NCBI GenBank assembly: GCA_007375725.1
Contig: VMEV01000005.1
Span: 1 to 57,725 of the forward strand
DNA length: 57,725 nt
Direction of reading: 5' to 3'
Source: Parcubacteria group bacterium Greene0416_36
GTDB lineage: Bacteria > Patescibacteriota > Patescibacteriia > VMEV01
Shown piece after piece: positions 3,622 through 56,166 of this stretch. Position 1 is the stretch's first letter, and the number at the start of each line of letters is the position of its first letter. The notes beneath the pieces are model-generated. The model did no database searches, was not told where the DNA came from, and was given only the letters and a program-made list of their open reading frames with translations. The position numbers and the translations under genes are program-made.

Positions 3622-3688
3622 AAGAATCAATTACGAATTACAAATGACGAATTACGAATATTTAAAGATTCGATTATTCGCGATTACT
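3622..3688. repeat. heptamer-arm hairpin (GAATTAC-type arms), degenerate
   Basis: Left arm AATTACGAATTACAAATGACGAATTACGAATA, right arm ATTCGATTATTCGCGATTAC. It lies in the rpmG leader. Confidence 0.6.
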
Positions 3689-3730
3689 AGAAATTTATAG
3701 CAAAAAAAAGATATTTAATCAAGTATTGTT

Positions 3731-3815
3731 GCGGACTGTGTCACGCCGTAGCTACGACGAAGATAGGAGGGCGAAGCCCGCCTACGCGCTAAGGCGCGCT
3801 TCGGCGTGGCGAAGG
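3731..3815 (-). repeat. conserved structured tRNA 3' trailer element (copy 2)
   Basis: Aligns with 1941..2029. The internal hairpin shows compensatory changes. Confidence 0.8.
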
Positions 3816-3889
3816 CGGACCGAACGGGGCTCGAACCCGCAACCCCCGCCGTGACAGGGCGGTGCTCTAACCAGTTGAGCTACCGGTCC
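3816..3889 (-). tRNA. trnD: tRNA-Asp (GTC)
   Basis: Manual cloverleaf: acceptor GGACCGG, anticodon stem CCGCC/GGCGG, loop CTGTCAC, T-loop TTCGAGC. No encoded CCA. Confidence 0.85.
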
Positions 3890-3993
3890 AAAAACAGGAA
3901 AAGATTAACATGAAGTTTTATTTTTTGCAAAATCGGTTTCGGCAGATGTTTTTTGACTTCAAATGTTTGTTTGTGATATTTTACAGACATTCC

Positions 3994-4065
3994 GCCAACA
4001 TAGCTCAGCGGTAGAGCAGTAGTTTTGTAAACTATTGGTCGTGGGTTCAAATCCTACTGTTGGCT
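3994..4065 (+). tRNA. trnT: tRNA-Thr (TGT)
   Basis: Manual cloverleaf: acceptor GCCAACA/TGTTGGC, anticodon loop TTTGTAA, T-arm GTGGG-TTCAAAT-CCTAC. Confidence 0.85.
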
Positions 4066-4156: not shown

Positions 4157-4408
4157 ATACAACATTCAGCAGCAAAATCAATGCATTGTGTTTTGTAAAA
4201 GTCATCTGATATAATGCTGGGCAAAGAACTGGCTTGGGAGGGGGTTCTTTTTTATCCTGCGAAGCTCGCCTTAGAGCGAAGCAGGATGAAAGCAAGGGGA
4301 GTGCCTTTATTACTTAGAGGGCTCCTTTTATTTTTGGCTGAAATGACGTACTCTGGGGACAACTTTCAAGAGTTTTGATAATCTATCAGATTAGCTGGTG
4401 GTGGGATG

Positions 4409-4479
4409 TTGTCATCCTGAGCCTGTCGAAGGATCTCTCGGCAAGGCATGAGATGGTTCGACAGGCTCACCATGACAGC
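4409..4479. repeat. TGTCAT...ATGACA compound palindrome, CCTGAGCCTGTCGAAGG type (copy 1)
   Basis: GTCATCCTGAGCCTGTCGAAGG ... GGTTCGACAGGCTCACCATGAC. It ends 16 nt before the metG ATG. Confidence 0.8.
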
Positions 4480-4494
4480 ACTACTTCCTAACCT

Positions 4495-6323: not shown

Positions 6324-6538
6324 TAGGTAGTAGCTTCATTAGCTTCGTCAGGTAACAAAATAAGATATGGAGAAAAAAATTATTGTATCGTATAAGGATT
6401 TGGTTGTTTGGCAAAAGGGCATGGATGTAGATGCTTTATTGCTTGAAGTGATGAAAATGTTAAATAAGATGTTATCTTCTTTGTCTGAGCATGCTAACTA
6501 ATGAAGCTAATGTAGCTAACGAAGCTAATGACCTAACC
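6324..6538. repeat. heptamer-arm hairpin (TAGCTTC-type arms) enclosing a gene remnant
   Basis: Left arm 6324-6356 and right arm 6493-6538 are inverted runs of TAGCTTC-like units. Confidence 0.75.
6367..6501 (+). pseudogene. internally deleted four-helix-bundle (23S rRNA IVS protein family) gene remnant
   Basis: The 44-aa ORF is MEKKIIVSYKDLVVWQKGMDV...EVMKMLNKMLSSL. It keeps only the N-terminal YKDLxVWQK and C-terminal KMLxxLxxSL ends that I associate with this ~120-aa family. Confidence 0.55.
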
Positions 6539-7249: not shown

Positions 7250-7254
7250 CCCTT

Positions 7255-7360
7255 TCATTGCGAGGACCGCGTCTTAGCGGGACGTGGCAATCTCATGGCA
7301 GAAACCTTTTCGACACGAGATTGCTTCGCCCCTGCTAAAGCGCAGGTTCTCGCAATGACA
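7255..7360. repeat. TGTCAT...ATGACA compound palindrome, CATTGCGAG type (copy 1)
   Basis: Two inverted ~40-nt units, CATTGCGAGGACCGCGTCTTAGCGGGACGTGGCAATCTC and its partner. It ends 14 nt before the SOD ATG. Confidence 0.8.
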
Positions 7361-7374
7361 TTTAATTTACACAT

Positions 7375-7956: not shown

Positions 7957-8046
7957 TAAATCCCTCTCCAACCCTCCCTTTGACAAGGGAGGGGGTTTGC
8001 AGCCCCTTCCCCCTTGTCAAAGGGGGACCGAGGGGGATTTGTTGTT
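7955..8046. repeat. nested palindromic element (NPE) copy a, F orientation
   Basis: AATAAATCCCTCTCC...CCCTCCCTTTGACAAGGGAGGG...CCCCCTTGTCAAAGGGGG...GGGATTTGTTG. It overlaps the SOD stop codon. Confidence 0.9.
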
Positions 8047-9727: not shown

Positions 9728-10505
9728 ATTATCGATTATTATTTGCGCCTTGGATTCGAGAGATCATCTGGTTCGCTGTTTTGAATCTCTGTCCCTCCAA
9801 TACCTTCCGCGGTCGTGGGAACTGATTCTCGTGGAGAATGGCTCGTCCGACGGGACGGCGGGCTGGGTGGCCGCGGAGTATCCGCAGTTCCGTGTGATTG
9901 CTAATACTGCGAATAAAGGGGTCTCGATTGCCCGCAATCAGGCATTGGCCGAGGCGAGGGGAGAGTTTGTTTTATTCCTGGACGCGGATACTTATTTTAC
10001 GGAATCCCACACCATCAAGCATTTGATCTCGGTCTTGGATTCTGATCCCACCATTGCTCTCTTGGCCCCGAAACTTTTGTATCCCGATGGCCGGTATCAG
10101 TGTAATGTCCGCCGATTTCCAACCTTGTCGACCATGGCGGTGCGGGCCTTGGGCTTGGATTTGTGGGCGAAGAAAAGGCGTTTTTTTAGGGATTTTTTGT
10201 ATGAAGATATTATGATTGAAAATAAGGAGCTTCTGGATGTCGATTGGGCCTTGGCCGCTTGCCAATTGATTCGTTCCTCAGTTTTCAATCAAATCGGGCT
10301 TCTCGATCCGAAATATTTTTATGGTTATGAAGATATTGATTTTTGTTATCGATTGAAGCGTGGGGGAGCGCGAGTGGTTTTTGACCCCCGCGTGTCTTTG
10401 GTGCATATTTATCAGCGGCGAAGTACCCAATCATGTTTTTTTGCCTACCATCATGGTCGCAGTATTTTGCGATTTTTGGTTAAAAGATATCTATGCCTTA
10501 TTTGA
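9711..10505 (+). CDS. glycosyltransferase family 2
   Basis: LSIIICALD...NGSSDGT...LFLDAD motifs. The ATG at 9711 overlaps the upstream gene end. Confidence 0.75.
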   Translation: MSHSVKLSIIICALDSRDHLVRCFESLSLQYLPRSWELILVENGSSDGTAGWVAAEYPQFRVIANTANKGVSIARNQALAEARGEFVLFLDADTYFTESHTIKHLISVLDSDPTIALLAPKLLYPDGRYQCNVRRFPTLSTMAVRALGLDLWAKKRRFFRDFLYEDIMIENKELLDVDWALAACQLIRSSVFNQIGLLDPKYFYGYEDIDFCYRLKRGGARVVFDPRVSLVHIYQRRSTQSCFFAYHHGRSILRFLVKRYLCLI

Positions 10506-12361
10506 TCGCCTCTATTTTTTTTATTTTATTGCTCGTGCCATCGGAATGGGGGCATTTTATTTTGGGGGCGAGCGCGGCTTTGGTTTATTTATTTCTATTC
10601 TCGAAAGGGAAGATTCAAATGATCCGGAGTGATTGGATTTTATGGGTACTCTGGGGATATTTTTTGTCCGGAGTTTTTTTTCTTGTCCCATCTTTCGAAC
10701 GGGGAATAGCGGCCCTAGTGGATTTTACGTCCTGCCTGTTTTTGTTTTTTTCGGTTCGGAGCATGGATTTGTCTCTTGAAAAGTGGGCAAAGCCTCTGTT
10801 CGTCGTGTCGGGGATTAGTGCGCTCTGGGGACTCGTGGGACTTGGGCTCAGCGATCACTGGGGCTACCTCCGGACCTTTTCTTTCTGGGGCTCCCATGCC
10901 CACTGGGCGTCTTTTTTGATTTTTATTATTCCGATCGCGATGTTTTGGGTGATGAGGGGAGGGCGTCGGTGGGGGATTTTATTTCTGGCGATTTTATTCG
11001 CCAATTATTATTTCACCTTTTCCAGAAGTTCTTTCTTGGCTTTGGGTTTATGTATGGGGGTTTTGCTACTGATGAGAAAGGGCGATAAGCAACAAATCCC
11101 CCTTAATCCCCCCTTGACAGGGGGGAGATTGCTCCCTCCCCTGTCAAGGGGAGGGTTGGGGAGGGGTTGGTTGTTGGCTGTTTTTCTAATCCTCTCCCTC
11201 AGCCTTTACAAAATACACGATGCCCAAAAATCAGGTGTGCGCTTGTCTTTTTTATCACTCCAGCCCATTGTTGTCTCCATAGATAAATCAATTCCTGAAC
11301 TTGCTTCTGGGATCGACTTTTTTTTCGAACCAATACCTCCTCGAAATGCTGTGTCTTTTCGTCTTTCATACTGGAAACACGCGAGCGAAATTTTTCGGGA
11401 TCATTGGTTTTGGGGCATCGGAATCGGGGCCTTCGCAGATCAGTATCGCCTGTATTATCAGGATTTGCGCGATTTTTCGGGCGACCCGCATTCGTGGCCG
11501 CTGTCCTTGGCTTTGGCGGGCGGGGTGGCGGGGGGCGTGATTTTATTCATCTGGATTATTTCGGTGGTTCGGACAAGATTTTGGGAGGGGTGGGGCGACT
11601 CTCAGAAAATATTGGCTCTGTCTTTGGGTTTATTACTCGTTTCCAATCTCTGGGACCGAGGATTGATTTTTCTGCCGCATTTATTGATGATTTTCGTGTC
11701 TTTGGGGATGCTTTTGGGGGATGCGGGTCGTCCTGGTAGGGACACGTTCGGGCGTAGGGGCACGTTGCAACGTGCCCCTACGGGGCCGGTGGTAGGGATA
11801 TCCATAATTTTATTATTCGTTTCGTCTAGCTTTTTCCTCTCCTCTCTCTTTTCCAATCCCCGTCTTGCTTATTATTTCTATCGCCCTCGATCGGAATATG
11901 CTTATGCGGAGGCCCAGAAGCATGTGGATGGGGAAGTCCGTGCGGATTATTTTGTCTGGATGTCCCGCGCTTTATTTTGGGATGCCCCCAACTATATTTA
12001 TCGGACTCAATTAGCCGTCAATTTGTGGAATACCGGCCGTCACTCCGAGGCTCTCTCCGAAATCGAGCGCACGATTGCTTCCTCCCCCCGTGGCATTCCC
12101 AATTTGTACTTGTATTATTTTCAATTATTGAAGAATCGCGGGGAGTATGAAAAAATAGTGCGAGTCGGAGAAACTGTGATTCTGGATTATCCCAGAGATA
12201 TTCTGGTCTCCGAGGATTATTTTCTCTTCGACGGCGGCATTGAAAAACGGAAATCCGTGGCCGATATTTACGGGTGGATGGCCCGAGCGGCAGAGACTCT
12301 GGGAGACTTCGGAAAAGCGCAATTTTTCGAGGAGAGAAGCCGATTTATTTTGGGATTATGA
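10493..12361 (+). CDS. O-antigen ligase (Wzy_C)-like membrane protein with TPR-like C-terminus, carrying two in-frame repeat insertions
   Basis: Multi-TM protein with a FSRSSFLALGL-type motif. It contains NPE copy b and a GTAG palindrome in frame. Confidence 0.6.
   Translation: MPYLIASIFFILLLVPSEWGHFILGASAALVYLFLFSKGKIQMIRSDWILWVLWGYFLSGVFFLVPSFERGIAALVDFTSCLFLFFSVRSMDLSLEKWAKPLFVVSGISALWGLVGLGLSDHWGYLRTFSFWGSHAHWASFLIFIIPIAMFWVMRGGRRWGILFLAILFANYYFTFSRSSFLALGLCMGVLLLMRKGDKQQIPLNPPLTGGRLLPPLSRGGLGRGWLLAVFLILSLSLYKIHDAQKSGVRLSFLSLQPIVVSIDKSIPELASGIDFFFEPIPPRNAVSFRLSYWKHASEIFRDHWFWGIGIGAFADQYRLYYQDLRDFSGDPHSWPLSLALAGGVAGGVILFIWIISVVRTRFWEGWGDSQKILALSLGLLLVSNLWDRGLIFLPHLLMIFVSLGMLLGDAGRPGRDTFGRRGTLQRAPTGPVVGISIILLFVSSSFFLSSLFSNPRLAYYFYRPRSEYAYAEAQKHVDGEVRADYFVWMSRALFWDAPNYIYRTQLAVNLWNTGRHSEALSEIERTIASSPRGIPNLYLYYFQLLKNRGEYEKIVRVGETVILDYPRDILVSEDYFLFDGGIEKRKSVADIYGWMARAAETLGDFGKAQFFEERSRFILGL
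11089..11176. repeat. NPE copy b, R orientation, inside a CDS
   Basis: GCAACAAATCCCCCTTAATCCCCCCTTGACAGGGGGG...CCCTCCCCTGTCAAGGGGAGGG...GTTGGTTGTTG. It is read as QQIPLNPPLTGGRLLPPLSRGGLGRGWLL. Confidence 0.85.
11736..11781. repeat. GTAG-headed palindrome (REP-like) plus partial copy, inside a CDS
   Basis: GTAGGGACACGTTCGGGC is followed by the perfect 28-nt palindrome GTAGGGGCACGTTGCAACGTGCCCCTAC (11754-11781). Confidence 0.85.
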
Positions 12362-14039: not shown

Positions 14040-14355
14040 AAAAATACTCAAGCCCGATTTGGAATTCCAGTCTCTTTTTCGAGAGAGACTGGCTAGTTCC
14101 GGTGATTTATATCTGGAAATTCGCGCCTCTCCTTCTTCTTCCAAAACCGAACTCAGGGAGGTTTTATCTAGTGGAACCTGGAAAATCGCTCTGGTCGCTC
14201 GGCCGGAGCGTGGAAAGGCCAATGTCGAATTGGTTCTTTTTTTATCCCGATTTTTTGACGTACCGAAATCAAATGTGGTTCTGGTTCGAGGAGTGGCCTC
14301 TCGCCAGAAGTGTGTGCATGTGTGGAAAAAAATCCCTCCCCAGCCCTCCCTCTGA
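14029..14355 (+). CDS. DUF167 (YggU-like) protein
   Basis: The ARPERGKANVELVLFLSRFFDVPKSNVVLVRGVASRQK pattern matches this family. The last residues and the stop lie inside NPE copy c. Confidence 0.6.
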   Translation: MGNKKILKPDLEFQSLFRERLASSGDLYLEIRASPSSSKTELREVLSSGTWKIALVARPERGKANVELVLFLSRFFDVPKSNVVLVRGVASRQKCVHVWKKIPPQPSL

Positions 14356-14412
14356 GAGGGGAGGGGGCACTAACTTCCCCCTTGTCAAAGGGGGACCGAG
14401 GGGGATTTGTTG
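14326..14412. repeat. NPE copy c, F orientation
   Basis: The variant left hairpin is CCCTCCCTCTGAGAGGGGAGGG. It contains the DUF167 stop codon. Confidence 0.9.
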
Positions 14413-14470
14413 TTTGTTGTTGAGTTGTTTTTCTTTATGCTAAAATAATTACGAAATCAGTTTTGTTATT

Positions 14471-44509: not shown

Positions 44510-44571
44510 ATGACTCGCCCTCTCATTTATTTCATGCTAAAATCCACCTGAAAGATAGCAGATAATTTTTT

Positions 44572-45341: not shown

Positions 45342-45346
45342 ATTTT

Positions 45347-46261: not shown

Positions 46262-46366
46262 CCATCATCCCCGAGAGCCCTGTAGGGCGATAATTCCAAC
46301 TTGTTCCGCGCGCCATAAATCGCTATTATGGAGTCACGATAATTATATTTTTTGAAACTAATTTTT

Positions 46367-47008
46367 ATGACGGATCAACAACTCAATCGCATTACAGTTT
46401 TGGGTGTTATTTTGGTGATTATTGCTGGAATAGTTGGTCTTTATTGGTCTTCTCGGCCGGGGGTATCTATTCCCGAGGTGGCCGCGATCTCAGATCATGA
46501 TTGGGTCAAAGGAAATAAAGACAGTGGAAATTTACTCGTAGAATACAGCGACTTCCAGTGTCCGGCCTGCAGTTTTTACAGCTCGATTGTGGAAGAATTA
46601 GCCAAGGAAATGGGGGACAAGCTCGCTTTTGTTTATCGGCATCATCCTCTTTCCATTCATCCGTATGCCGAGTCCGCGGCGGCCGCGGCTGAGGCCGCCG
46701 GAACTCAGGGCAAGTTCTGGGAAATGCACGATCTGCTTTTCAAAAATCAGTCCGTGTGGTCTGCGTCCGCGGATCCTGAGGCCGCTTTTGTCTCTTATGC
46801 AGAGTCTTTGTCTTTGAATGTCGAGAAATTCAAGACCGACATGGATTCCAGGGCGGCTCGTGGCAATGTCCGGGCGGATTATCTCTCGAGCCTCTCCTTG
46901 GGAATCGACTCCACACCCACCTTTGTCTGGAATGGCCAAAAACTCGCCGATGTTCCCGGAAATTACCTCGAATTCAAGAAAATGATCGAGGTGAAATTGA
47001 CGGAGTAG
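46367..47008 (+). CDS. membrane-anchored DsbA/thioredoxin-family protein
   Basis: An N-terminal TM anchor and the CPAC active site within EYSDFQCPACSFY. Confidence 0.75.
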   Translation: MTDQQLNRITVLGVILVIIAGIVGLYWSSRPGVSIPEVAAISDHDWVKGNKDSGNLLVEYSDFQCPACSFYSSIVEELAKEMGDKLAFVYRHHPLSIHPYAESAAAAAEAAGTQGKFWEMHDLLFKNQSVWSASADPEAAFVSYAESLSLNVEKFKTDMDSRAARGNVRADYLSSLSLGIDSTPTFVWNGQKLADVPGNYLEFKKMIEVKLTE

Positions 47009-47134
47009 TTAAAATAGTGTATGGTAAACCATCTTTAATGCTGTATTAAAGATGGTTTTTTATATTGCTCGGCATTTTTTTGACCAAAACCCTATATTTG
47101 TGATAAATTCCCCTCGTGGACAGTTTGTCCCCAT

Positions 47135-47206
47135 GGCGACTATAGTTTAGTGGTAAAACACTGGTTTGTGGAGCCAGTTTCACGGGTTCAATTCCCGTTA
47201 GTCGCC
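47135..47206 (+). tRNA. trnH: tRNA-His (GTG) with encoded G-1
   Basis: An extra G lies before acceptor GCGACTA. Anticodon loop TTGTGGA, discriminator C. Confidence 0.85.
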
Positions 47207-47218
47207 CCGACGTCAAAC

Positions 47219-47247
47219 AGAGTGTGAAAACACTCTTTTTCTCTTTT
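47219..47247 (+). terminator. rho-independent terminator after tRNA-His
   Basis: AGAGTG-TGAAAA-CACTCT followed by a T-run. Confidence 0.6.
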
Positions 47248-47380
47248 ATTTATAGGGGTTTCCATTAGTTCTGACCCACTCTATTTTCTTGATTTTACTA
47301 TATTTGGAATGCCTGATTTTATTGGTCATCCAAAATGACCCTAACAGGAATTGAACTTTTATGTACACTTATGGGGAAGC

Positions 47381-48295
47381 TTATTTATTTCCGCGATATA
47401 ATAGAATCCCCCTAACATTAAATCCCTCCGCAATTTTCCACACTCCTTTTTCCCGAAAAGCGGGTATATGTTGACGGCGAGCGGCGTTTGTTATGGAAGG
47501 AGCAGACTTACCCTGTTTTTTGATAAATTCAGAAAGAGTAATGATCTTTTCTCCCTTGAGATAAGTAATTCGTTTATGGAGCGACTCCATGAGGGCCAAT
47601 GACAGGACTTTTTCCATTGCTTTGGTATTTTTATTCATTTCGTATTCCGCAAACGATTTATAATATTTTGATTTTTCTTTATCGCGAATAATAATCATGG
47701 GAAGTCCCAGTCTTTGAAGCTGGAAATTCATGAGAACTCTGCCAATACGTCCATTTCCGTAACAAAAGGGATGGATATTCTCGAAATCCAAATGAAATTT
47801 CGCAATTTTATCAATAAAATAGCCTGAGAGATTGAGGCTGTACTCATTGATAAGAGAGGTAATCAAACTTTGCACATGCTCTGGGGCAGGGGCGATATGG
47901 GAGCCAACTCTTACATATTCGCCTTTTATTCGGAAGCGTCCAGCAATATCGTCATTGATTCCGCCGATGAGCATTTGGTGCAGCAATAAAATGATTTCTT
48001 CATTGACTTGGATTTCCTTTGATTTGTTGCGAATATAGCCAATGACTCGTGCCAGATTTTTCGCTTCAAATACTTCGCGCACGGGTACATCTCTGGAAAC
48101 TTCCATATCCAAAAGAATCTTCTCGGTTTCTTTGAGGGTAAGAGTCGAGTTTTCAATTGCATTGGAGTTATAGACACTTTCTGGAATTTCGACTTCATCA
48201 ATCATGACCAGAAGCGATTCTTTTCCTTTTCGCAGGGTGTCGAATTCGTTTTTGAGGGATTGAATTTTGTTTTTTGTGAGGTTAGAAATAGCCAT
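47381..48295 (-). CDS. Fic-family protein with N-terminal inhibitory motif
   Basis: The Fic motif is HPFCYGNGRIGR, and SNAIEN matches (S/T)xxxE(G/N). The ORF extends to 48334, but that part overlaps operator-like repeats. Confidence 0.8.
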   Translation of the reverse strand: MAISNLTKNKIQSLKNEFDTLRKGKESLLVMIDEVEIPESVYNSNAIENSTLTLKETEKILLDMEVSRDVPVREVFEAKNLARVIGYIRNKSKEIQVNEEIILLLHQMLIGGINDDIAGRFRIKGEYVRVGSHIAPAPEHVQSLITSLINEYSLNLSGYFIDKIAKFHLDFENIHPFCYGNGRIGRVLMNFQLQRLGLPMIIIRDKEKSKYYKSFAEYEMNKNTKAMEKVLSLALMESLHKRITYLKGEKIITLSEFIKKQGKSAPSITNAARRQHIPAFREKGVWKIAEGFNVRGILLYRGNK

Positions 48296-48301
48296 ATTTT
48301 T

Positions 48302-48335
48302 AGTGAATTTATGCTTAAATAATAGCATATTCACT
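48302..48335. promoter_or_regulatory. operator-like imperfect palindrome R1 upstream of fic
   Basis: AGTGAATTTATGCTTAAATAATAGCATATTCACT. Confidence 0.5.
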
Positions 48336-48352
48336 CAAAATAAGCAATTTTG

Positions 48353-48386
48353 GATGAATTTAGGCTTAATGTAATGCAAATTCACT
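48353..48386. promoter_or_regulatory. operator-like imperfect palindrome R2 upstream of fic
   Basis: GATGAATTTAGGCTTAATGTAATGCAAATTCACT is a direct repeat of R1, about 80 percent identical by eye. Confidence 0.5.
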
Positions 48387-48469
48387 CATTTTTTATGGGG
48401 CAATGATTGTGAAATCGCAAATTTTAGCCTCAAAAGTGCTAATTTTCGTAAAGGTCGATGAGCCTCTCG

Positions 48470-48518
48470 CTCAATAAAACTAGGTCTCGACATGTTGTCG
48501 AGACCTAGTTTTATTGAG
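48470..48518. terminator. very long perfect hairpin (23-bp stem), bidirectional terminator shape
   Basis: CTCAATAAAACTAGGTCTCGACA-TGT-TGTCGAGACCTAGTTTTATTGAG lies just downstream of the 48520..48864 gene. Confidence 0.65.
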
Positions 48519-48519
48519 T

Positions 48520-48864
48520 CTATGCTTTTTTCTGCGCCAACATTTGTTTTTCCAAGAAGGCCACCCTTTGTCTGAGGCTGAGCACCTCTTGGGAGAGCAT
48601 ATCCGTATCTTCTTTTGATTGTTTTCTGACATTCTCGAGTTTTTTCTCTACTCGGTCCAAATCTTCTCGAATATCATGCAGTTGTGTGTGTATCGAAGAG
48701 AGAGATTGTTCGGTTTTAGTTCTGAAACTAAACATTTCGGTTTTGAAATCATCATGTTGTTTCTGCAGGAATTCAAATCCTTTCCGCGTGATTTGGGTGA
48801 GCTCAGCAATTTGATTGGCCAGCCCCTTTAATGTGGTTTCTTGTCCGGCAGTTTTGGATGCCAT
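48520..48864 (-). CDS. coiled-coil hypothetical protein
   Basis: A 114-aa protein with heptad-like charged/hydrophobic pattern throughout. No family recognised. Confidence 0.5.
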   Translation of the reverse strand: MASKTAGQETTLKGLANQIAELTQITRKGFEFLQKQHDDFKTEMFSFRTKTEQSLSSIHTQLHDIREDLDRVEKKLENVRKQSKEDTDMLSQEVLSLRQRVAFLEKQMLAQKKA

Positions 48865-49004
48865 AGATTTTGAGAACTCTATTTTTGCGAAGAAATGATA
48901 GGGTTCTGTGAAGTTAATTTTTAAGGGGCCGGTGTTTTATTTCTCTATCACTTTAAATGGAATTTCTAGCCGAGTCAATCCATCGGTTCTTTCCTTATTC
49001 TGGG

Positions 49005-49754
49005 CTATGGCAGAGTTTTCCAGATTTGTTCAAAAATAATCATCTGGGTTTGAAAAATAGCGCGGTCTTCCACGAGCACGGCGATGAGTTCTCCCGCGGC
49101 ATTGACCGAAAAAAAAGCGACCTTGTCTGCATAAATGAGCACGAAATTGGGGTCTTTGCTTTGTTTGTCGGTTGGTAGGTATTTGCGGCTGGCTAGTTTC
49201 GCACTTGTGCCGCCTTGCCATAGTGATATAACCCGGACAGATATATTATTTTGGATCCGTTTTTCCGTGAAATTTGGGAATTTTTCGTAGAGTGTTTGGG
49301 CTACCGGTTCGGAAGAGTAGGCTGCATAAGAGAGGTTTCCTTGTTTTTGGCAGGATTCCAGAAGATCCTCCAAAATTATTTTTCCCCCGTGCGCTCCTTC
49401 ATAAAATTTGACCACGGGTTTTTTGCCGGACTCATTAGCCAGGCTCTCGAGTTCCGGAATGAGATCATTCATCTGATTGCCTAATAGGTCCAGTTTTTTG
49501 CGTTTTTCTTCTAGAACTAAACTTAAGTTTTTTGGGTTTTCGGCCGTGAAGTATTGGTGTTTTTCTTTGTGATAGTACGTTATCAGCCTTTGTTCAATGA
49601 GTGATTTGAGAATATCGTAAGTCGTGCCACGATTGACTTTTGACTCTTCCGCGATTTTTCGGACAGGTGAAGGCCCGAGTCGCAAAAGAGCTAAGTAAAC
49701 ATTGATTTCATTGTCAGAGAAATCAAATTTTTTGAGGGTGGGGAAGAGATCCAT
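49005..49754 (-). CDS. TrmB-family transcriptional regulator
   Basis: The N-terminal winged helix reads FSDNEINVYLALLRLGPSPVRKIAEESKVNRGTTYDILKSLIEQRLI. Confidence 0.75.
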   Translation of the reverse strand: MDLFPTLKKFDFSDNEINVYLALLRLGPSPVRKIAEESKVNRGTTYDILKSLIEQRLITYYHKEKHQYFTAENPKNLSLVLEEKRKKLDLLGNQMNDLIPELESLANESGKKPVVKFYEGAHGGKIILEDLLESCQKQGNLSYAAYSSEPVAQTLYEKFPNFTEKRIQNNISVRVISLWQGGTSAKLASRKYLPTDKQSKDPNFVLIYADKVAFFSVNAAGELIAVLVEDRAIFQTQMIIFEQIWKTLP

Positions 49755-49757
49755 AGT

Positions 49758-49799
49758 AAAATTACGAATTAAGAATTAAGAATTACGAATAGAACAGCC
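49758..49799. repeat. half heptamer-arm element (left arm plus GAACAGCC)
   Basis: AAAATTACGAATTAAGAATTAAGAATTACGAATAGAACAGCC. No right arm is present. Confidence 0.7.
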
Positions 49800-49819
49800 T
49801 TGAGTGGACAAGCTATAGG

Positions 49820-51685
49820 TTATTGGACGGTGACGGATTTGGCAAGATTGCGGGGGAGATCGGGATTATAACCCTTTAGAACCGCCATGTAATAGGCGAA
49901 TAATTGCAGGGGGATGCTATAGAGAATTGGGCTGAGCGGTTCGTAAATGGGTGGAAGATACAGTACTTGGTCTGCGATTGTGTCTACTTGCGTATCGCCA
50001 ACGGTGGCAATAGCGACCACTGGCCCTGATCTAGCTTTGATTTCCTGCATATTCGATATGTTCTTGGCATATACTGAATCATTGGGACAGAGGAAAAATG
50101 TAGGGAACTGGTCCGTGATCATTGCCAGAGGTCCATGTTTCATTTCTCCGCTTTCATAAGCTTCGGCATGAATATAACTGATTTCTTTGAGTTTGAGCGC
50201 TCCTTCCATGGCTGTTGGATAATTATACTTTCTGCCTAAGAATAGAAAGTTTGTGAATTTTGAATAATCCTCGGCAAGTTTTTTTATCTGCGGATCTAAA
50301 ATGTTGATTGTTTTTTCAATGATATCTGGCAATGAATTCAGGGTATTGATAAATAGAGTACGGTCTGATAAAGACATGTTTTTTGATTGACCAAAGAAAA
50401 GGGTTAGCAAGGCGAGATTAGCTATTTGTGCGGTGAATGCTTTTGTGGAGGCTACTCCAATTTCGGGTCCGATTCGTTGATAAATGCCCACTCCGCATTC
50501 TCTGGCAATAGTACTTCCTACGCGATTGATAAGGCCGAGGCATAGAATATTTTTATTTTTAAGTTCGGTCACGCATCCCAAAGTATCCGCGGTTTCTCCG
50601 GATTGAGAAATGAATAATGCCAAGTCTCGTTTTGGATGAAGGGGGAGTTTGCGATACCGGAATAAGGAAGCTATTTCCGCGTGAGCTTCCATATCTGCAA
50701 ATTCTTCAAATAAAAATTTGCCTACCAGACTCGCGTGAAAAGACGTGCCGCAGCCAATCAAGAATATTTTCTCTTTTGAAAGTATGGATTCTTTTTGTTG
50801 TTCCAGTCCTCCCAGTTTGACTCCCGCAATATCGGAAATCATGCGGCCGCTAAGGGTGTCGCGAAGTGCTTTGGGTTGTTCAAAGATTTCTTTGGCCATA
50901 AAGTGGGGAAAGCCTTGTTTTTGAGCGAATTCTTCCGTTTCATTCATGGGAACAGATATAGGGCTTTGCGGTTTTGATTCGAAATCCGTGATTTCTATTT
51001 TTCCGCCTCCTAAGGCTACAAGGGTTTCCGGCGGCATGGCCACTACTTTTTGTGCGATATCGGGATAGAGATAGAATGTCCCGGGATCCGAAGAAATAAG
51101 AAATTCGTTTTGTTCGTTATTGTATGAAAATAAAAGCGGGCTTTCTTTTCGCGCTAAAAATAAAGAGTCGGGTCCGTCCGCGTCCATGACCACTATGGCA
51201 AAGGCGCCTTCCATTTTAGACAGAATCCTTCGCAAGCATTCCCGCGTATTCATCGTCGGGTTTTGTTTCTTTTCTTCTTCTAAAAGGTGAGGAATGATTT
51301 CCGTATCGGTCTGGCCGAAAAATCGGTGTCCTTCGGCTATCAATTGTTTTTTTAGTTCCGCGTGATTCTCGATGACTCCATTGTGGACCACATGGATTTT
51401 TCCGTGGCAATCCCGGTGGGGGTGAGCGTTTTCTTCGGAGGGGATTCCGTGTGTTGCCCAGCGCGTATGGGCAATGCCGACGGTTCCGCCGATCGAGAGG
51501 GGATCCAGTTTCTTTTTCAAATTTTCGAGCTTTCCGGGAGATCGATAATAGTGGGTGGTTTTATTTTTTTCATCCCGGATCGATAGCCCCGCGGAGTCAT
51601 ATCCTCTATACAGCACGCTTTCGAGTCCTCGAAGGAGAATGGGTTTTGCTTCCCTGTTTCCGATATAACCAATGATTCCGCACAT
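49820..51685 (-). CDS. glmS: glutamine--fructose-6-phosphate aminotransferase
   Basis: MCGIIGY N-terminus, two SIS domains, and the C-terminal LAKSVTVQ end. Confidence 0.92.
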   Translation of the reverse strand: MCGIIGYIGNREAKPILLRGLESVLYRGYDSAGLSIRDEKNKTTHYYRSPGKLENLKKKLDPLSIGGTVGIAHTRWATHGIPSEENAHPHRDCHGKIHVVHNGVIENHAELKKQLIAEGHRFFGQTDTEIIPHLLEEEKKQNPTMNTRECLRRILSKMEGAFAIVVMDADGPDSLFLARKESPLLFSYNNEQNEFLISSDPGTFYLYPDIAQKVVAMPPETLVALGGGKIEITDFESKPQSPISVPMNETEEFAQKQGFPHFMAKEIFEQPKALRDTLSGRMISDIAGVKLGGLEQQKESILSKEKIFLIGCGTSFHASLVGKFLFEEFADMEAHAEIASLFRYRKLPLHPKRDLALFISQSGETADTLGCVTELKNKNILCLGLINRVGSTIARECGVGIYQRIGPEIGVASTKAFTAQIANLALLTLFFGQSKNMSLSDRTLFINTLNSLPDIIEKTINILDPQIKKLAEDYSKFTNFLFLGRKYNYPTAMEGALKLKEISYIHAEAYESGEMKHGPLAMITDQFPTFFLCPNDSVYAKNISNMQEIKARSGPVVAIATVGDTQVDTIADQVLYLPPIYEPLSPILYSIPLQLFAYYMAVLKGYNPDLPRNLAKSVTVQ

Positions 51686-51742
51686 ATGATTTGTTTTTTA
51701 ATGTTTTTTGCGATTTTATTCGCCTTGTCTTATTAATGATTG

Positions 51743-51771
51743 AAGGGCTCAAATAAATTGAGCCCTTTTTT
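51743..51771 (+). terminator. orphan plus-strand terminator-shaped hairpin in the glmS leader region
   Basis: GGGCTCAA-ATAAA-TTGAGCCC is followed by TTTTTT on the plus strand only. Confidence 0.4.
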
Positions 51772-52064
51772 GTCCTATTTATTTCTACAATTTTATTTTA
51801 TTTTGTTTTTATTCGGGAGGGGACCGGCTGTTATTGTCCGCTTTTTTGGTTTTGGAATACAGGTATGGTTCTTTTAATTTATTTGATAAATAATTATTTT
51901 TTATTTTCATATTTTTGTTTTTAATATTTCTATAACCATTGTAATTTTATATTTTTATACTGTCAATTTTATTCCTACAAAGATATTTAAATTGGTGTTT
52001 TGTACAATGTTTATGCGGGAAATTTTTTCGGAAAATGTCTGGAAAAAAATGTTTTTTGTCGGGG

Positions 52065-52073
52065 TTATCCACA
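52065..52073. promoter_or_regulatory. perfect DnaA-box 9-mer (TTATCCACA)
   Basis: An exact consensus inside a ~490-bp AT-rich stretch with no supported gene. Confidence 0.2.
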
Positions 52074-52177
52074 GCTTTTTGGTGGCATTATTGTTCTCTT
52101 CTATTCTGAAGAAGAAGCATATTGTGTTTTATGCGTTTTTAGTGCAAAATCCTTTTGAGATAGTTTTTTGAAAAGAG

Positions 52178-52274
52178 TTGTCATGCTGAGCCTGCCGTGC
52201 CAACCCGAAGCTGTTTTAGCCTAGGGTGGTCGAAGCATTTCTAAGGAAAGCCTTCGACAGGCTCAGGCTGACAA
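52178..52274. repeat. TGTCAT...ATGACA compound palindrome, CCTGAGCCTGTCGAAGG type (copy 2)
   Basis: TTGTCATGCTGAGCCTGCCG...GCCTTCGACAGGCTCAGGCTGACAA. It ends 17 nt before the lepA ATG. Confidence 0.8.
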
Positions 52275-52291
52275 GGCCCCTCTAAAATTAT

Positions 52292-54085
52292 ATGAAAAGC
52301 ATCCGTAATTTCTGCATTATCGCTCATATTGATCATGGAAAGTCCACCTTGGCGGACCGGTTTTTGGAATTGACAAAAACCGTGGAGAGGCGAGACATGC
52401 AGGCGCAATTGCTTGATTCCATGGACATCGAGCGCGAGCGGGGGATCACGATCAAGTTGACGCCAGTGCGCATGAATTACACCGCCAAAGACGGGCAGGA
52501 ATATATTTTGAATCTGATCGATACTCCGGGCCACGTTGATTTTTCGTATGAAGTGTCACGGTCATTGGCTGCGGTCGAGGGCGCGATTTTGCTTGTGGAT
52601 GCCACTCAGGGCATTCAGGCTCAGACCTTGGCCAACTTGTATCTGGCACTGGATCAGAATCTGGAAGTGATTGCTGTGGCCAATAAAATCGATTTGCCGG
52701 CGGCCGAGGTCGAGAAGGTGACGGATGAAATCGTGAATCTGATTGGATGCCCCAGAGAGGATGTGCTTCGAGTGTCCGGCAAAACCGGCTTCAATGTGGA
52801 CTCGATTCTGGAGCGAATCGTGTCGAAAATCAAACCGCCTAGAATAGAGACGTCATTGCCTCTGCGAGCCCTCATTTTTGATTCTGTATATGATGAATAT
52901 AAAGGGGTAATTGCCTATATTCGCGTGATGGAGGGCCGCATCAAAAAAGGGGACAAAATCAGATTTGTCTCCATGGGCCAGGACGCCGAAGTCTTGGAAG
53001 TCGGCGTATTTCGCCCAAAATATGTGGAATGCGAAGAACTCTCCGCTGGAGAAATCGGCTATGTTTCTTTCGGGGTGAAGGACTTGGGTCAGTGCCGCGT
53101 GGGTGACACGATCGGCGATCGGTCGGTGACGGTTGCTTTGCCCGGATACAAGGAGGTGAAGCCCTTTGTTTTTGCTGGTATTTTTTGCAAAGAGGGCAAT
53201 GAATTTTCAAAATTAAGAGAAGCGGTTGAGAAACTCAAGCTCAATGACGCGTCTTTGGTCTACGAGGTGGAAAATAACAATGCCTTGGGATTTGGGATTC
53301 GCGCGGGGTTTCTCGGCATGCTTCACCTGGACATTGTTCAGGAGCGACTTCGCCGTGAATACGACCTCGATCTTATCATCACCGTGCCTTCGGTGGCTTA
53401 TCGCCTTTACAGACTTGGCGATGGAGAAGATTTTTCAATCGTGAAATCTCCTTCCGATTTGCCGGATCCGTCCAAAATCGCCAAACTGGAAGAGCCCATG
53501 ATGAAGGTCTCGATTGTCTGTCCCAAGGATTACATGGGGCCGGTGATGCAATTGGTCAGCGAAAAAAGGGGCACTTATATTTCGACGGAGTATTTGGATC
53601 TTGGGACTGCGGTTCTTCATTACCGCATGCATTTGTCCTCCATCATCGTGGATTTTTATGATAAGCTCAAAAGTGTCAGCACCGGGTATGCGTCTCTCAA
53701 TTATGAATTTGATGGCTACGAAGAAGTGGAAGTGGTTGTCCTGGATATTTTGGTGGCGGATAAAAAAATGGAGCCATTGGCTACTATCGTCTATGAAGAG
53801 GATGCCTATTATGCGGGGCGCAAAATTGTGGAGACTCTCAAAGATATTTTGCCGCGCCAGCAATTTGAGGTGAAGATCCAGGCGGCTATTGGCGCAAAAA
53901 TTATTGCTAGCGCAAAAATTCCGGCCATGAGAAAGGATGTGACGGATTATCTGTCTGGCGGCGACGTGAGTCGTAAGATGAAATTACTCAGCAAGCAAAA
54001 AGAAGGCAAGAAAAAAATGAAGGAAATGGGCATCGGCAAAGTTGATATCCCGCCGGATGCCTTTATTGCGGTACTTAAAAGGTAA
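52292..54085 (+). CDS. lepA: elongation factor 4
   Basis: IRNFCIIAHIDHGKSTLADR, DTPGHVDF, NKIDL and the LepA C-terminal domain. Confidence 0.93.
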   Translation: MKSIRNFCIIAHIDHGKSTLADRFLELTKTVERRDMQAQLLDSMDIERERGITIKLTPVRMNYTAKDGQEYILNLIDTPGHVDFSYEVSRSLAAVEGAILLVDATQGIQAQTLANLYLALDQNLEVIAVANKIDLPAAEVEKVTDEIVNLIGCPREDVLRVSGKTGFNVDSILERIVSKIKPPRIETSLPLRALIFDSVYDEYKGVIAYIRVMEGRIKKGDKIRFVSMGQDAEVLEVGVFRPKYVECEELSAGEIGYVSFGVKDLGQCRVGDTIGDRSVTVALPGYKEVKPFVFAGIFCKEGNEFSKLREAVEKLKLNDASLVYEVENNNALGFGIRAGFLGMLHLDIVQERLRREYDLDLIITVPSVAYRLYRLGDGEDFSIVKSPSDLPDPSKIAKLEEPMMKVSIVCPKDYMGPVMQLVSEKRGTYISTEYLDLGTAVLHYRMHLSSIIVDFYDKLKSVSTGYASLNYEFDGYEEVEVVVLDILVADKKMEPLATIVYEEDAYYAGRKIVETLKDILPRQQFEVKIQAAIGAKIIASAKIPAMRKDVTDYLSGGDVSRKMKLLSKQKEGKKKMKEMGIGKVDIPPDAFIAVLKR

Positions 54086-54088
54086 ATT

Positions 54089-54178
54089 AACAACAAATCC
54101 CCCTCAATCCCCCTTTGACAAGGGGGAGGCTGTTACCCCCTCCCTTGTCAAAGGGAGGGTTGGGGAGGGATTTGTTGT
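54089..54178. repeat. NPE copy n, R orientation
   Basis: Full element starting 3 nt after the lepA stop codon. Confidence 0.9.
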
Positions 54179-54349
54179 TTAGATATGCATCGTCATCAAA
54201 TCACAAAAATCCTCTGGAAGGTCATTTGTATTGTCATGATTTTTTCCATGATTCTATTCACTATATTGCCTTTATTGGGCAATTGAACCTGAAATCAGAT
54301 TTTTTTGAAGAAATCTGATTTTTTGGCTGGCTGATTTTGTTAAATTTAT

Positions 54350-56092
54350 ATGAAGAAAATAGCGCAGTGGGAGATCAAGACGCCCGTGGAGGTCGCCAAT
54401 CGGGATCAGTTTCCGGAGGTGCATCCGATCGTTTTGCAGTTGCTGTGGGATCGGGGATTGCGGACCGAGGCGCAAATCGAAGAGTTTTTGACTCCGGATT
54501 ATTTGGAAGACGTCCATGATCCTTTTTTATTTTCGAGAATGGTTGAAGCGGTAGATTTACTCTCGGGAAAAATTAAAGCGAAAGAATTAGTCGCGATTCA
54601 CGGGGACTATGATGCGGATGGCGTCACGGCCAGCGTGATTTTGGCTTCCACGATTCGACTTCTCGGCGGAGAGGCTCTGGTTTATTTGCCTCATCGGGAA
54701 ACCGAAGGCTATGGTCTGTCTAAAAAGGCTATTGATTATCTGGCTCGAAAAGGCGCCTTCTTACTCATCACGGCTGACTGCGGGATCAGCAATCGGGAAG
54801 AAGTCGAGTATGCTAAATCATCGGGGTTTACCGTGATTGTCACCGATCATCATGAGGTCCCAGCCGTACCTCCGGAGTGCATTTTGATTCATCCCCGCGC
54901 TCCTGGAGAAGAATATCCTTTTAAATATCTGACAGGCGGAGGAGTGGCATTCAAATTCATGCAGGCCATTCTTCGTACGAAGAGCGAGGAATTTGGAGTC
55001 AAAAAAGAAGAAGCTTTTGCTTTTGAAAAATGGCTTCTGGATTTGGTGGCCATCTCGACGGTCGCGGACATGATGCCCCTCCTCGGTGAGAATCGGACCT
55101 TGGTCAAATATGGCCTGGTGGTACTGGCCAAATCCCGTCGCGTGGGCATGAAGAGTCTGCTCGAACGTGCGGGACTGCTTGGGGGAGAGAAGCCCGCTAA
55201 ACTGGATGCCGATACCATTGGCTTTCAAATTGCGCCTCGCATCAATGCCGCCGGGCGCATGGATCATGCCAATATCGCGTTCGAGCTGCTCATGGAAGAG
55301 TCGCCGGTGCGGGCGGGTGAACTCGCCGAAGCTATCAACAAGAATAACGCCGATCGTAAAGACGTGGTGACCCGCATGATGGAGTCTGCGTATCGTCAGC
55401 TGGGAGAGGTTCCGCTGGACGCGCGCCGAGTGCTTTCGGTTTATGACAGCTCGTGGTCCTTGGGAGTCGCGGGGCTTGTGGCCGGGAAACTTTGCCAGGA
55501 ATTTTACCTGCCCTCGGTCGTGGCCGCGGATCTGGACGGGAAAATCGCGGGTTCGGTGCGTTCGATTCCTGGATTCAATTTTGTCGATATGCTTTGGGAG
55601 ATGAAGGGTCTGTTTGAGAAATTTGGAGGTCATGCCGCGGCTTGCGGATTCACGCTGAAGAACCGAGCGGATTGGCCGATATTCCAGAAAAAAGCGAGTG
55701 AATTTTTCTTTCTCAAATCGCGCGACTCGGATGTGATCCCGAAGCTCATGATCGACCAGGAAATTCCGCTCCGAGAAATCAATTGGGATCTCATGGGTCA
55801 GCTCGAGCAGTGTGAGCCTTTTGGAAAAGATAATCCTCGTCCGGTTTTTATCTCGCGAGGGGTGACGGTCAAATCGCTCGACCCTATTGGTAATCTAGGG
55901 AAACATTTGCGTCTCTCCGTATTTGACGGCCAAAAAACAACCCGTAAATGCATCGGGTTCTGTTTTGGCCACTGGTGCCAAACCCTCAAATCCGGGGATA
56001 AAATTGATATGGTCTATGAGGTGGGCGTCAATGAATGGAATGGGAATAGGGAATTGCAATTGAGGATTGTGGATCTTAAATTAGGCAGTTAG
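54350..56092 (+). CDS. recJ: single-stranded-DNA-specific exonuclease RecJ
   Basis: DHH-family motifs: HGDYDADGV, ITADCG, VTDHH. Confidence 0.9.
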   Translation: MKKIAQWEIKTPVEVANRDQFPEVHPIVLQLLWDRGLRTEAQIEEFLTPDYLEDVHDPFLFSRMVEAVDLLSGKIKAKELVAIHGDYDADGVTASVILASTIRLLGGEALVYLPHRETEGYGLSKKAIDYLARKGAFLLITADCGISNREEVEYAKSSGFTVIVTDHHEVPAVPPECILIHPRAPGEEYPFKYLTGGGVAFKFMQAILRTKSEEFGVKKEEAFAFEKWLLDLVAISTVADMMPLLGENRTLVKYGLVVLAKSRRVGMKSLLERAGLLGGEKPAKLDADTIGFQIAPRINAAGRMDHANIAFELLMEESPVRAGELAEAINKNNADRKDVVTRMMESAYRQLGEVPLDARRVLSVYDSSWSLGVAGLVAGKLCQEFYLPSVVAADLDGKIAGSVRSIPGFNFVDMLWEMKGLFEKFGGHAAACGFTLKNRADWPIFQKKASEFFFLKSRDSDVIPKLMIDQEIPLREINWDLMGQLEQCEPFGKDNPRPVFISRGVTVKSLDPIGNLGKHLRLSVFDGQKTTRKCIGFCFGHWCQTLKSGDKIDMVYEVGVNEWNGNRELQLRIVDLKLGS

Positions 56093-56166
56093 GCTTTAGG
56101 CATTAGCTTTTTAGGGAACAGCCAAAATACTGTTTTATTTCTAATAAGCTAAAACCTAATGCCTAA
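56081..56166. repeat. heptamer-arm hairpin (TTAGGCA/TTAGCTT-type arms)
   Basis: The left arm overlaps the recJ stop. GAACAGCC lies in the loop. The right arm is CTAATAAGCTAAAACCTAATGCCTAA. Confidence 0.75.

Follow-up and report, generated by a model that had tools for sequence, protein, structure and literature searches.

Heptamer-armed hairpins in the intercistronic spacers of a Parcubacteria chromosome segment

What fills the spacers of a streamlined bacterial chromosome with long hairpins whose arms repeat every seven nucleotides, in a heptamer that changes from locus to locus? The question is raised by a stretch of 57,725 nucleotides from Parcubacteria group bacterium Greene0416_36 (contig VMEV01000005.1), referred to here as the window. 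An earlier note on this DNA had counted at least ten such hairpin loci with a shared AACAGCC/GGCTGTT core and had attributed them to a structure-specific rather than a sequence-specific mechanism. Here, we describe six heptamer hairpins (H1 to H6), a composite element and a set of single arms, and follow similar hairpins into other phyla and phages. At roughly even odds (about 0.5), these are heptanucleotide repeats of the class known as short tandemly repeated repetitive (STRR) sequences or, more broadly, long simple sequence repeats (LSSR), which would have grown by 7-nt slippage on palindromes and would serve as generic intercistronic stem-loops. The feature belongs to a known but unexplained heptanucleotide-repeat phenomenon and is not a new kind of system. 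What is new are the lineage-specific apex, GAATTAC hairpins across phyla and phages, the polarity of the arms and an orthologous replacement series in phages.

Periodic arrays and their inverted arms

Arrays were detected by Tandem Repeats Finder (TRF) together with a windowed self-match scan, with locally shuffled sequence as the control. The scan of the window returned strict tracts at period 7 (n=10), period 14 (n=6), period 9 (n=2) and period 12 (n=1) and none at periods 4-6, 8, 10, 11, 13 and 15, and about zero strict period-7 tracts were found in the shuffled control. Period 7 is the sole strongly enriched tandem period in the window. TRF placed heptamer tracts at nearly all coordinates cited before, and the two methods bear out that the unit varies by locus, the types being GAATTAC/GAATGAA, TAGTGAG, AAAATTC, TTAGGCA, CTACCTC and TTTGTTG. 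The density of arrays is 2.9 per 10 kb, as compared with 6.0 in a Nostoc locus and 4.5 in one of Thermoflexus.

Inverted pairs were scored by arm length and complementarity, and their predicted RNA folding energies were set against those of shuffled sequences. An inverted partner lies within 200 nt of 10 of the 18 window arrays, and the census comprises six true heptamer hairpins, one composite and about seven single arms (Table 1). The arms of H1-H6 measure 22-40 nt and are 77-93% complementary; predicted folding reaches -23 to -44 kcal/mol, two to three times the -9 to -24 kcal/mol of the shuffles, and the inverted pairing has z about -6 to -8. For H1 the energies are -36.5 and -12.7 kcal/mol, respectively, and folding it as DNA gives z = -7.05. 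The objection that the arms might be plain AT-rich low-complexity sequence, or an artefact, has in its favour that they are indeed AT-rich, yet this pairing and a 7-nt period absent from shuffles refute the notion of unpaired low complexity. Independent assemblies from other samples (four in all) match the window at 100% identity across H5 and the loci at 33475, 34811 and 49758, so the heptamer structures are genomic and no assembly artefact, an explanation to which we give practically no weight. Independently assembled contigs end inside other repeats of the window.

The figure of ten or more hairpin loci with a common core is thereby reduced to the six hairpins and the composite. Two of the loci that had been counted as heptamers, 6324-6538 and 33475-33528, were assigned period 9 by TRF (TAGCTTCAT); 3622-3688 does not fold better than its shuffles (-7.8 against -8.0); and 36156-36214 is a direct array without inverted partner. 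The single arms at 20121, 49758 and 56681 were recovered, and further ones were located at 2262, 14406 and 34811.

Table 1. Heptamer hairpins, other arrays and companion palindromes; positions refer to the window except where a locus number is given.
Feature	Position	Strand	Anatomy	Placement
H1	45253-45341		GAATTAC-type; arms 45262-45301/45302-45341, 40 nt, 83% complementary, no gap; apex AACAGCC/GGCTGTT at 45295-45308	fills spacer from ftsE stop (45252) to ftsX start (45347)
H2	44155-44308		GAATTAC-type; arms 44166-44197/44277-44308, 32 nt, 88%; 79-nt insert	between divIC stop (44160) and tRNA-Thr (44312)
H3	18677-18763		GAATGAA/GAATTAA; arms 18677-18703/18730-18756, 27 nt, 89%, 21-nt perfect core	fills spacer from stop of 647-aa ORF (18673) to tgt start (18767)
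H4	24966-25059		TAGTGAG/CTCACTA; arms 24973-24994/25029-25050, 22 nt, 91%; without core	between dnaB stop (25048) and ybaB start (24958), both minus strand
H5	33265-33351		AAAATTC/GAATTTT; arms 33272-33300/33323-33351, 29 nt, 93%	beside tRNA-Lys (33184-33258, minus); identical in independent assembly
H6	56080-56180		TTAGGCA/TGCCTAA; arms 56082-56111/56151-56180, 30 nt, 77%	from recJ stop (56092, within arm) to rnhA start (56182)
Composite	34811-34917	+	GAATNAN arm	arm encodes last 11 codons and stop of GT4 gene
Array with core	2212-2295		GGCTGTTCATTCTTC (core plus one unit), 35 nt, ATTCTTC array	array ends at stop of AI-2E transporter gene (minus)
Single array	3629-3659	-	GAATTAC-type; no significant hairpin	directly upstream of rpmG (L33, 3466-3621, minus)
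Single arm	20121-20146	+	ATTCGTA-type	between right end of GC-rich element (19977-20111) and xseA start (20153)
Single arm	49758-49799		GAATTAC/GAATTAA plus AACAGCC (49793)	65-nt spacer between glmS stop and trmB-like start (both minus)
Single arm	56681-56703	+	TTCATTC-type	between GC-rich element (56593-56679) and UMP-kinase start (56704)
Direct array	36156-36214	+	(CTACCTC)x8.4, no inverted partner	between GC-rich element (36065-36152) and ATG 36220
In-place duplication	14406-14430	+	(TTTGTTG)n, the terminal heptamer of the GC-rich element duplicated	end of GC-rich element 14330-14412
9-mer inverted arms	6324-6538		TAGCTTCAT/ATGAAGCTA around about 150 nt	between rubredoxin gene and FNR-like gene
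9-mer single array	33475-33528	+	TAGCTTCAT x4.3	upstream of tRNA-Ala
GC-rich element, copies 1-8	7958-8044, 11090-11174(-), 14330-14412, 19977-20111, 21392-21479, 26554-26642, 27759-27843, 28931-29023(-)			
GC-rich element, copies 9-15	29403-29490(-), 30319-30410, 34852-34906 (half), 36065-36152, 43607-43692, 54091-54178(-), 56593-56679			
Third palindrome family and related type	7250-7372, 21790-21915; 4400-4490, 52165-52287; L086:775-915; L544:1430-1540			
Phage loci	L256:1488-1564 and 3000-3075; L250 (9 arrays in 9.9 kb); L241; L211; L462-L541			

How the arms may have grown can be read to some extent from the units themselves. Those of the GAATNAN type are all one or two changes away from the apex-proximal GAATGAA, and variant units are mirrored in position between the two arms of a hairpin. 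At 14406 the terminal heptamer of a GC-rich repeat element (described below) has been duplicated in place, and a similar 7-nt duplication of a repeat-element end is found at 28915; the former is a direct trace of 7-nt slippage in the host genome. The constant period, the duplication in place, the one- or two-change units and the mirrored variants therefore point to slipped-strand growth on both arms of a palindrome. Heptanucleotides are the most abundant class of long simple sequence repeats, and polymerase slippage has been proposed for them, according to Mrazek 2007 as summed up in two later papers (PMC4679880, PMC4692102).

Apex core and placement between genes

The motif AACAGCC occurs 14 times on the two strands of the window against 6.15 expected, a count reached in 0 of 100 shuffles, and ACAGCC is the top 6-mer at array edges. 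Within 12 nt of an array edge, a zone that makes up 0.75% of positions, lie 7 of the 26 occurrences of ACAGCC/GGCTGT (P about 8e-10), and all seven stand on the loop side in the same orientation. An eighth edge core is formed by GGCTGTTCATTCTTC at 2212. The closed AACAGCC/GGCTGTT form announced previously was found at 45295-45308 in H1; in H2, GGCTGTT at 44274 adjoins the 3' arm, and H3 carries GACAGCC at 18706-18712. The proposition that loop edges share this core thus holds for its enrichment on the loop side and fails in its generality, since only seven to eight edges carry it, nearly all in the GAATNAN family. With the exception of H6, every edge core belongs to that family (junctions such as GAATGAACAGCC, GAATGCAACAGCC, GAATAGAACAGCC, GAATTAAACAGCC and GAATGGGACAGCC), and the core is missing from H4, the 9-mer loci and 36156. 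H5 has just AAGCC, and its apex AGCCAAAATATTG is common to H6 (apex GGGAACAGCCAAAATACTGTT); under different arms, H5 and H6 have a longer apex AGCCAAAATAYTG in common, with 18 of 24 positions identical.

Elsewhere the core is absent from all 333 ends of GAAT-type arrays collected from 213 unrelated metagenome and viral loci. It reappears in the related Parcubacteria metagenome-assembled genome (MAG) GCA_007376705.1, in which the sole AACAGCC of a 10.3-kb contig (L544) stands 7 nt from a TTAGGCN-type arm; this MAG also carries the two other repeat families of the window. That contig and a second one, L542, were found via the peptide encoded by a GC-rich repeat element described below. Being enriched here, missing from unrelated ends and back in a related MAG, the core is lineage-specific. 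From sequence comparison it is best read as a sign of probable shared descent of one dispersed repeat family, and 32 nt are common to H1 and the left arm of H2, non-periodic sequence included. The conserved junction and apex point to a lineage-specific dispersed seed element.

A family of this kind also invites an explanation by mobility, a serious rival that we consider rather unlikely. The hairpins would be non-autonomous elements, of the type of miniature inverted-repeat transposable elements (MITE) or REPIN or similar to the small dispersed repeats (SDR) and loop-targeting, moved by a hairpin-recognising enzyme encoded elsewhere; the ACAGCC apex would be its recognition or cleavage site and the arms the terminal inverted repeats. 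The conserved junction GAAT(G/T)(A/G)(A/G)-ACAGCC at seven to eight loci in 57 kb fits such an origin. So does the variable cargo of the apex, which is none, 16 nt, 79 nt or half a GC-rich element. In the last case, the composite at 34811, the half-copy sits exactly at the apex of a GAATNAN hairpin: the arm is followed by AACAGCC (34844-34850), the left half of the GC-rich element (34852-34906), a ATTCGTAATTTT remnant and the ATG at 34921. Other GC-rich copies are followed by single heptamer arms. A CAGC(C/T) motif forms the apex loop in 6 of 15 GC-rich elements (for example GTAGCAGCC and GTAACAGCC), and AACAGCC of GCA_007376705.1 is flanked by a heptamer arm on one side and by a palindrome of a third family on the other. 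Mobility would account for this shared apex as well as for the excess of GAATTAC and the arm polarity described below. However, the arm unit and arm length vary by copy, unlike typical terminal inverted repeats, and the edges of the hairpins show no target-site duplications. Among the window ORFs, Pfam scans detected no transposase, REP-associated tyrosine transposase (RAYT), integrase or reverse transcriptase, and the 333 array ends without core elsewhere likewise count against mobility.

The 18 arrays all lie between genes or run no further than 11 codons into the end of one. In five cases the whole stop-to-start spacer ahead of a downstream gene on the same strand is filled (ftsE and ftsX, the 647-aa ORF and tgt, dnaB and ybaB, recJ and rnhA, divIC and tRNA-Thr). 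Several arrays provide the upstream gene with its stop codon, and arms end 3-16 nt ahead of start codons. These gene pairs stand 0-26 nt apart, without a hairpin, in the nearest relatives, where ftsE and ftsX overlap or are separated by 25 nt and the recJ-rnhA spacer measures 26 nt. Given these short spacers, the hairpins are lineage-specific recent insertions or expansions and not conserved processing sites. Insertion into such spacers would also suit a mobile element.

Strictly intercistronic placement, with predicted stems long enough for double-strand RNases, could alternatively mean that each hairpin was selected independently as a sequence-independent substrate, for instance a target of RNase III within polycistronic mRNA or a site in hairpin DNA, with the core as a loop signal. 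This is unlikely in our judgement. The hairpins are not kept at the orthologous spacers of relatives, single arms are unable to form the structure, and the supposed loop signal is lineage-specific and missing from H4, H5 and 36156. The proximity of the arms to start codons has its own alternative, for which we see very little room: the arrays might be multivalent mRNA sites for a single-strand-binding protein with a footprint of about 7 nt, of cold-shock-domain or S1 type, which would tune downstream translation, a role already put forward for the TAACTGA repeats of Beggiatoaceae. Heptamer repeats just upstream of starts are known where ribosome-binding sites are rare (PMC4679880), and the present genome is without Shine-Dalgarno sequences; but the unit is not the same at each locus, stop codons precede half of the arms and most arrays would be sequestered in duplex. 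TAACTGA, the repeat behind that comparison, forms hairpins at only 1 of 120 loci, hence a different mode.

For the slippage reading, we infer the following course. Each locus would start from a seed, a small intergenic palindrome with a lineage-specific apex module of the form ...GAATGAA-(A)ACAGCC..., or the 24-nt module in H5 and H6. Both arms would be lengthened in 7-nt steps by slipped-strand duplication, and a change in one arm would reappear in the other because the polymerase switches templates inside the palindrome, because pairing is selected for, or both. A locus could thus drift to its own heptamer with period and layout constant, and the loci combining GAATNAN with ACAGCC would all descend from a single dispersed repeat family. 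Transcribed together with the neighbouring genes, the elements would form stems of 25-40 bp that most likely work as ordinary stem-loops between cistrons: as a 3'-end barrier or a substrate of a double-strand RNase, and as a structure that, until it is opened, covers the A/U-rich region where translation of the following gene begins. A role as sequence-specific sites is unlikely.

Heptamer hairpins in other phyla and in phages

Outside the window, an inverted partner within 200 nt was observed for 67 of 215 arrays in metagenome contigs, 20 of 147 in mostly cyanobacterial genomes and 4 of 7 in the Parcubacteria MAG L085, as compared with 0-4 in a reverse-only control. Heptamer hairpins with other units and apexes are present in the Parcubacteria MAGs L085 and L007, a Buchananbacteria MAG, Nostoc, Thermoflexus and Microcoleus; in L085/L086, two of them share the apex GGAATAAATTTTATTTAAAAAATTCC. 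Inverted cases are on record as well for Xanthomonas and Nostoc (PMC4692102), and the architecture, which had been called unusual, is not so: it extends over other Parcubacteria, cyanobacteria, Chloroflexi, many metagenome contigs and Mu-like phages. With respect to neighbouring ORFs, array orientation at the metagenome loci has a weak trend (39 versus 25 after stops, 8 versus 15 before starts). In a palindrome the arm nearest to the downstream gene is always the second by geometry, so the orientation of half elements is uninformative.

The GAATTAC unit is particularly widespread. It forms arrays in at least 120 metagenome contigs (loci L089-L208) with GC contents of 0.28-0.67, and among IMG/VR stretches (loci L211-L303) it was found 93 times, against 9 and 18 for two control heptamers of the same composition; the corresponding numbers are 11 for CTACCTC and at least 120 for TAACTGA. 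Certain heptamers appear to be favoured across unrelated genomes. A published GAATTAC array sequence was not found in the literature searched. The range of GC contents, together with the occurrence in phages, would fit horizontal spread of a mobile element.

Among the GAATTAC carriers are true tailed phages, relatives of Mu-like Pseudomonas phages, in which hairpins stand immediately downstream of the major capsid gene as well as between head-protease and structural genes. When 80 related Mu-like phage loci were compared, the spacer behind the capsid gene proved to contain a stem-loop almost without exception. Its sequence is unrelated between loci and usually rich in GC, and in 6-12 of the 80 the arms are heptamer-periodic, each time with another unit, the units including GAATTAC, GAAGTAC, GATCAGC, GGTGAAT and GTGAGGA. 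Heptamer hairpins are, in this series, one way to build a stem-loop whose position is conserved and whose sequence is free. RNase III cleaves the mRNAs of phage T7 at hairpins between cistrons, and stabiliser stem-loops follow capsid genes. The elements described here are alike in lying between cistrons of one operon and in their predicted stems of at least 20 bp, and the phage heptamer hairpins stand exactly at the stem-loop site of their relatives; the window arms are unlike the T7 sites in being periodic and A/T-rich, with no conserved internal-loop geometry. That position rather than sequence is kept after the capsid gene, and the T7 precedent itself, speak for selection of a substrate. 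Taken with placement and stem length, the phage series suggests a generic intercistronic stem-loop effect at the transcript level. It may also be regarded as a natural experiment asking whether repeats are a mutational route to a generic structural element.

The hairpins have a polarity. (GAATTAC)n stands before the loop and (GTAATTC)n after it in 16 distinct contigs, against 3 with the reverse order, a bias that a mobile element would explain; when hairpins of all unit types were inspected by eye, the arm richer in purines was on the 5' side in about 20 of 21. A possible reason for this polarity is a first arm rich in stop codons combined with a second arm free of start codons. Together with the GAATTAC excess and the finding of the same apex under three unrelated stem types, the purine-first polarity is why we keep a further proposal in view: heptamer hairpins, including (GAATTAC)n-loop-(GTAATTC)n, could be the footprint of an unrecognised structure-specific process common to CPR (candidate phyla radiation) bacteria, other phyla and Mu-like phages. 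It might be a selfish hairpin element that spreads horizontally, or an enzyme by which palindromes are seeded and then lengthened 7 nt at a time, with the AACAGCC apex as its lineage-specific recognition site. We regard it as a distinctly long shot.

Several observations weigh against slippage-grown, generic stem-loops as the full account. GAATTAC is 5-10 times commoner than its controls and the arm polarity is a true asymmetry for a palindrome, neither of which is explained by slippage alone. The absence of the hairpins from orthologous spacers of relatives counts against a conserved function. Within the same assembly, the 20.4-kb contig L542 (ERZ27284378 k139_393209) has at most two weak period-7 arrays and no AACAGCC, and yet carries GC-rich element copies, some of them diverged (for example 15116-15272); it is either a different but related genome or a sign that heptamer hairpins are unevenly spread. 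Strand asymmetry due to G.U pairs, which a structure acting as RNA might be expected to show, was not detected among 31 hairpins from all loci (12 with the sense and 19 with the antisense strand more stable, P = 0.28), in a test whose strand assignment is crude; in the window hairpins the sense strand is the more stable in 6 of 6. The same null result counts against an independently selected substrate. Nine phage GAATTAC hairpins yielded 0 compensatory pairs, their arms being nearly invariant and the register ambiguous. Of the idea of a mechanism specific to structure and not to sequence, the part that survives is that structure and period are kept over arm sequence in phages and that stems of 25-40 bp in stop-to-start spacers, if transcribed, would be natural dsRNA substrates; the absent G.U asymmetry and the limited distribution of the core speak against the rest.

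Known repeat classes, companion repeats and the host

Heptanucleotide repeats in bacteria have reportedly been known since 1990, when Mazel et al. are said to have described the STRR heptanucleotide sequences of heterocystous cyanobacteria. Like STRR and LSSR, the window arrays have 7-nt tandem units beyond chance, several units per genome and a dense, dispersed, non-coding distribution, abundant by the window count, and hairpin pairs occur in those classes too. They differ in their CPR/Parcubacteria host, in that more than half of the arrays are in inverted pairs, in the lineage-specific apex and in being nested with two other palindrome families. The host restriction to cyanobacteria thus separates them from STRR in the strict sense and places them in the broader LSSR class, which has no such restriction. 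Xanthomonas has GGGAATC repeats and Nostoc PCC 7120 has GGGGA(C/T)T repeats, intergenic arrays of strain-variable length, some of them inverted and capable of forming stem-loops or cruciforms (Rehm et al. 2015, PMC4692102); they are G-rich, were studied as G-quadruplex formers and have one dominant unit per genome, whereas the window has many A/T-rich units and a shared apex. The TAACTGA repeats of marine Beggiatoaceae, cyanobacteria and Bacteroidetes abut start codons (MacGregor 2015, PMC4679880), and the BOGUAY genome has a single "indirect" set among 170 (PMC4679880). Common to both are heptamer arrays at starts without Shine-Dalgarno sites, a scattered phylogeny and over-representation in IMG/VR, as for GAATTAC; TAACTGA is one unit in direct, forward, pre-start repeats, in contrast to the mostly palindromic, many-unit arrays of the window.

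Repetitive extragenic palindromic (REP) sequences, REPINs and other small intergenic palindromes (PMC3116915) are likewise short, dispersed, hairpin-forming, intergenic and of high copy number, and assemblies break there. The window elements are unlike REP/REPIN since arm sequence is not conserved, no RAYT or other transposase was seen (Pfam scans of the window ORFs gave no Y1 transposase) and there is no GTAG at a fixed 5' position. Elhai et al. are said to have reported SDR from Nostoc in 2008, which share these general traits, and the 24-nt apex module under different arms in H5 and H6 resembles an SDR-like unit. With regard to MITE, inverted arms are present; no flanking direct repeats were seen on inspection of H1, H3 and H6, and the window has no insertion sequence. 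Rfam at its gathering threshold returned only the 8 tRNAs of the window. Intrinsic terminators were also considered, and no heptamer hairpin was called as one in 43000-57725; the H2 insert contains a terminator-like site.

Reports of such repeats in CPR bacteria were not found in the literature searched. The window adds streamlined CPR genomes, which have little non-coding DNA, to the range of the phenomenon, and the hairpin arrangement, of fixed polarity, is common in several phyla. In the window, nearly every spacer above about 40 nt is occupied by one of three hairpin repeat families.

The second of these families is the GC-rich element, an 88-nt G/C-rich long-hairpin repeat present in 15 copies (CAACAAATCCCTCCCC...TTTGACAAGGGAGGG-apex-TCCCCCTTGTCAAAGGGGGA..GAGGGGGATTTGTTG; -56 kcal/mol, z = -6.6). 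Its copies are located at or over stop codons, and other assemblies of the same population break within them. It is present in "Greene" Parcubacteria MAGs, and a JGI metagenome scan gave 0 matches. One copy (11090-11174) is read in frame in an O-antigen-ligase-like Wzy_C ORF (10493-12361), another (28931-29023, in ORF 27838-29400) fuses MurB to a DUF559 endonuclease-like ORF, and a third (21392-21466) encodes the last ~24 residues and the stop codon of XseA. Repeat insertions reshape predicted proteins. In practice, short-read assemblies break at such repeats, and predicted ORFs come out lengthened or joined, as with MurB-DUF559, with Wzy_C and with C-terminal tails, that of XseA among them. 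The third family is a palindrome TGTCATTGCGAG...CTCGCAATGACA, also written TGTCATTGCGAGG...GCAATCTCATG...CTCGCAATGACA, to which a TTGTCATCCTGAGCCTGTCGAAGG type is related; in a related MAG, this family takes up the ftsE-ftsX spacer.

The inverted 9-mer arms at 6324-6538 fold to -52.0 kcal/mol as compared with -42.1 for shuffles, and enclose a 44-aa ORF (MEKKIIVSYKDLVVWQKGMDV...) at 6367-6501. The ORF recalls the ends of four-helix-bundle proteins of 23S rRNA intervening sequences; as a candidate remnant of such a protein it was set aside, having no Pfam match.

The window corresponds to positions 41-57765 of the 57.8-kb metagenomic contig ENA ERZ27284378 k139_360328. It is part of a bacterial chromosome and contains about 46 housekeeping genes, most of them in plus orientation, together with 8 tRNAs. 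The genes include metG, sodA, glycosyltransferases, tgt, xseA, dnaB-ybaB-recR, murB, mur ligases, divIC, ftsEX, glmS, lepA, recJ, rnhA and pyrH. The closest relatives of its LepA and FtsX are Patescibacteria/Parcubacteria near Buchananbacteria at only 57-63% identity, and the host is therefore an uncultured CPR bacterium without a close sequenced relative. A comparison of TrmB, meant to gauge relatedness, matched a paralogue with 29% identity and is uninformative.

A Shine-Dalgarno-like sequence precedes none of the 46 listed genes, whose leaders are A/T-rich, and translation initiation in this host appears to be independent of Shine-Dalgarno pairing. Canonical bidirectional intrinsic terminators, perfect or near-perfect palindromes of A-run, GC stem and T-run, are found at 3401-3452, 44383-44437 and 48470-48518; one example separates the convergent tRNA-Thr and tRNA-Gly genes, and they form a class apart from the heptamer hairpins. 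On the minus strand, 1301-1841 holds two small overlapping ORFs, one with weak ParE/Gp49-like matches, which suggests a toxin-antitoxin pair.

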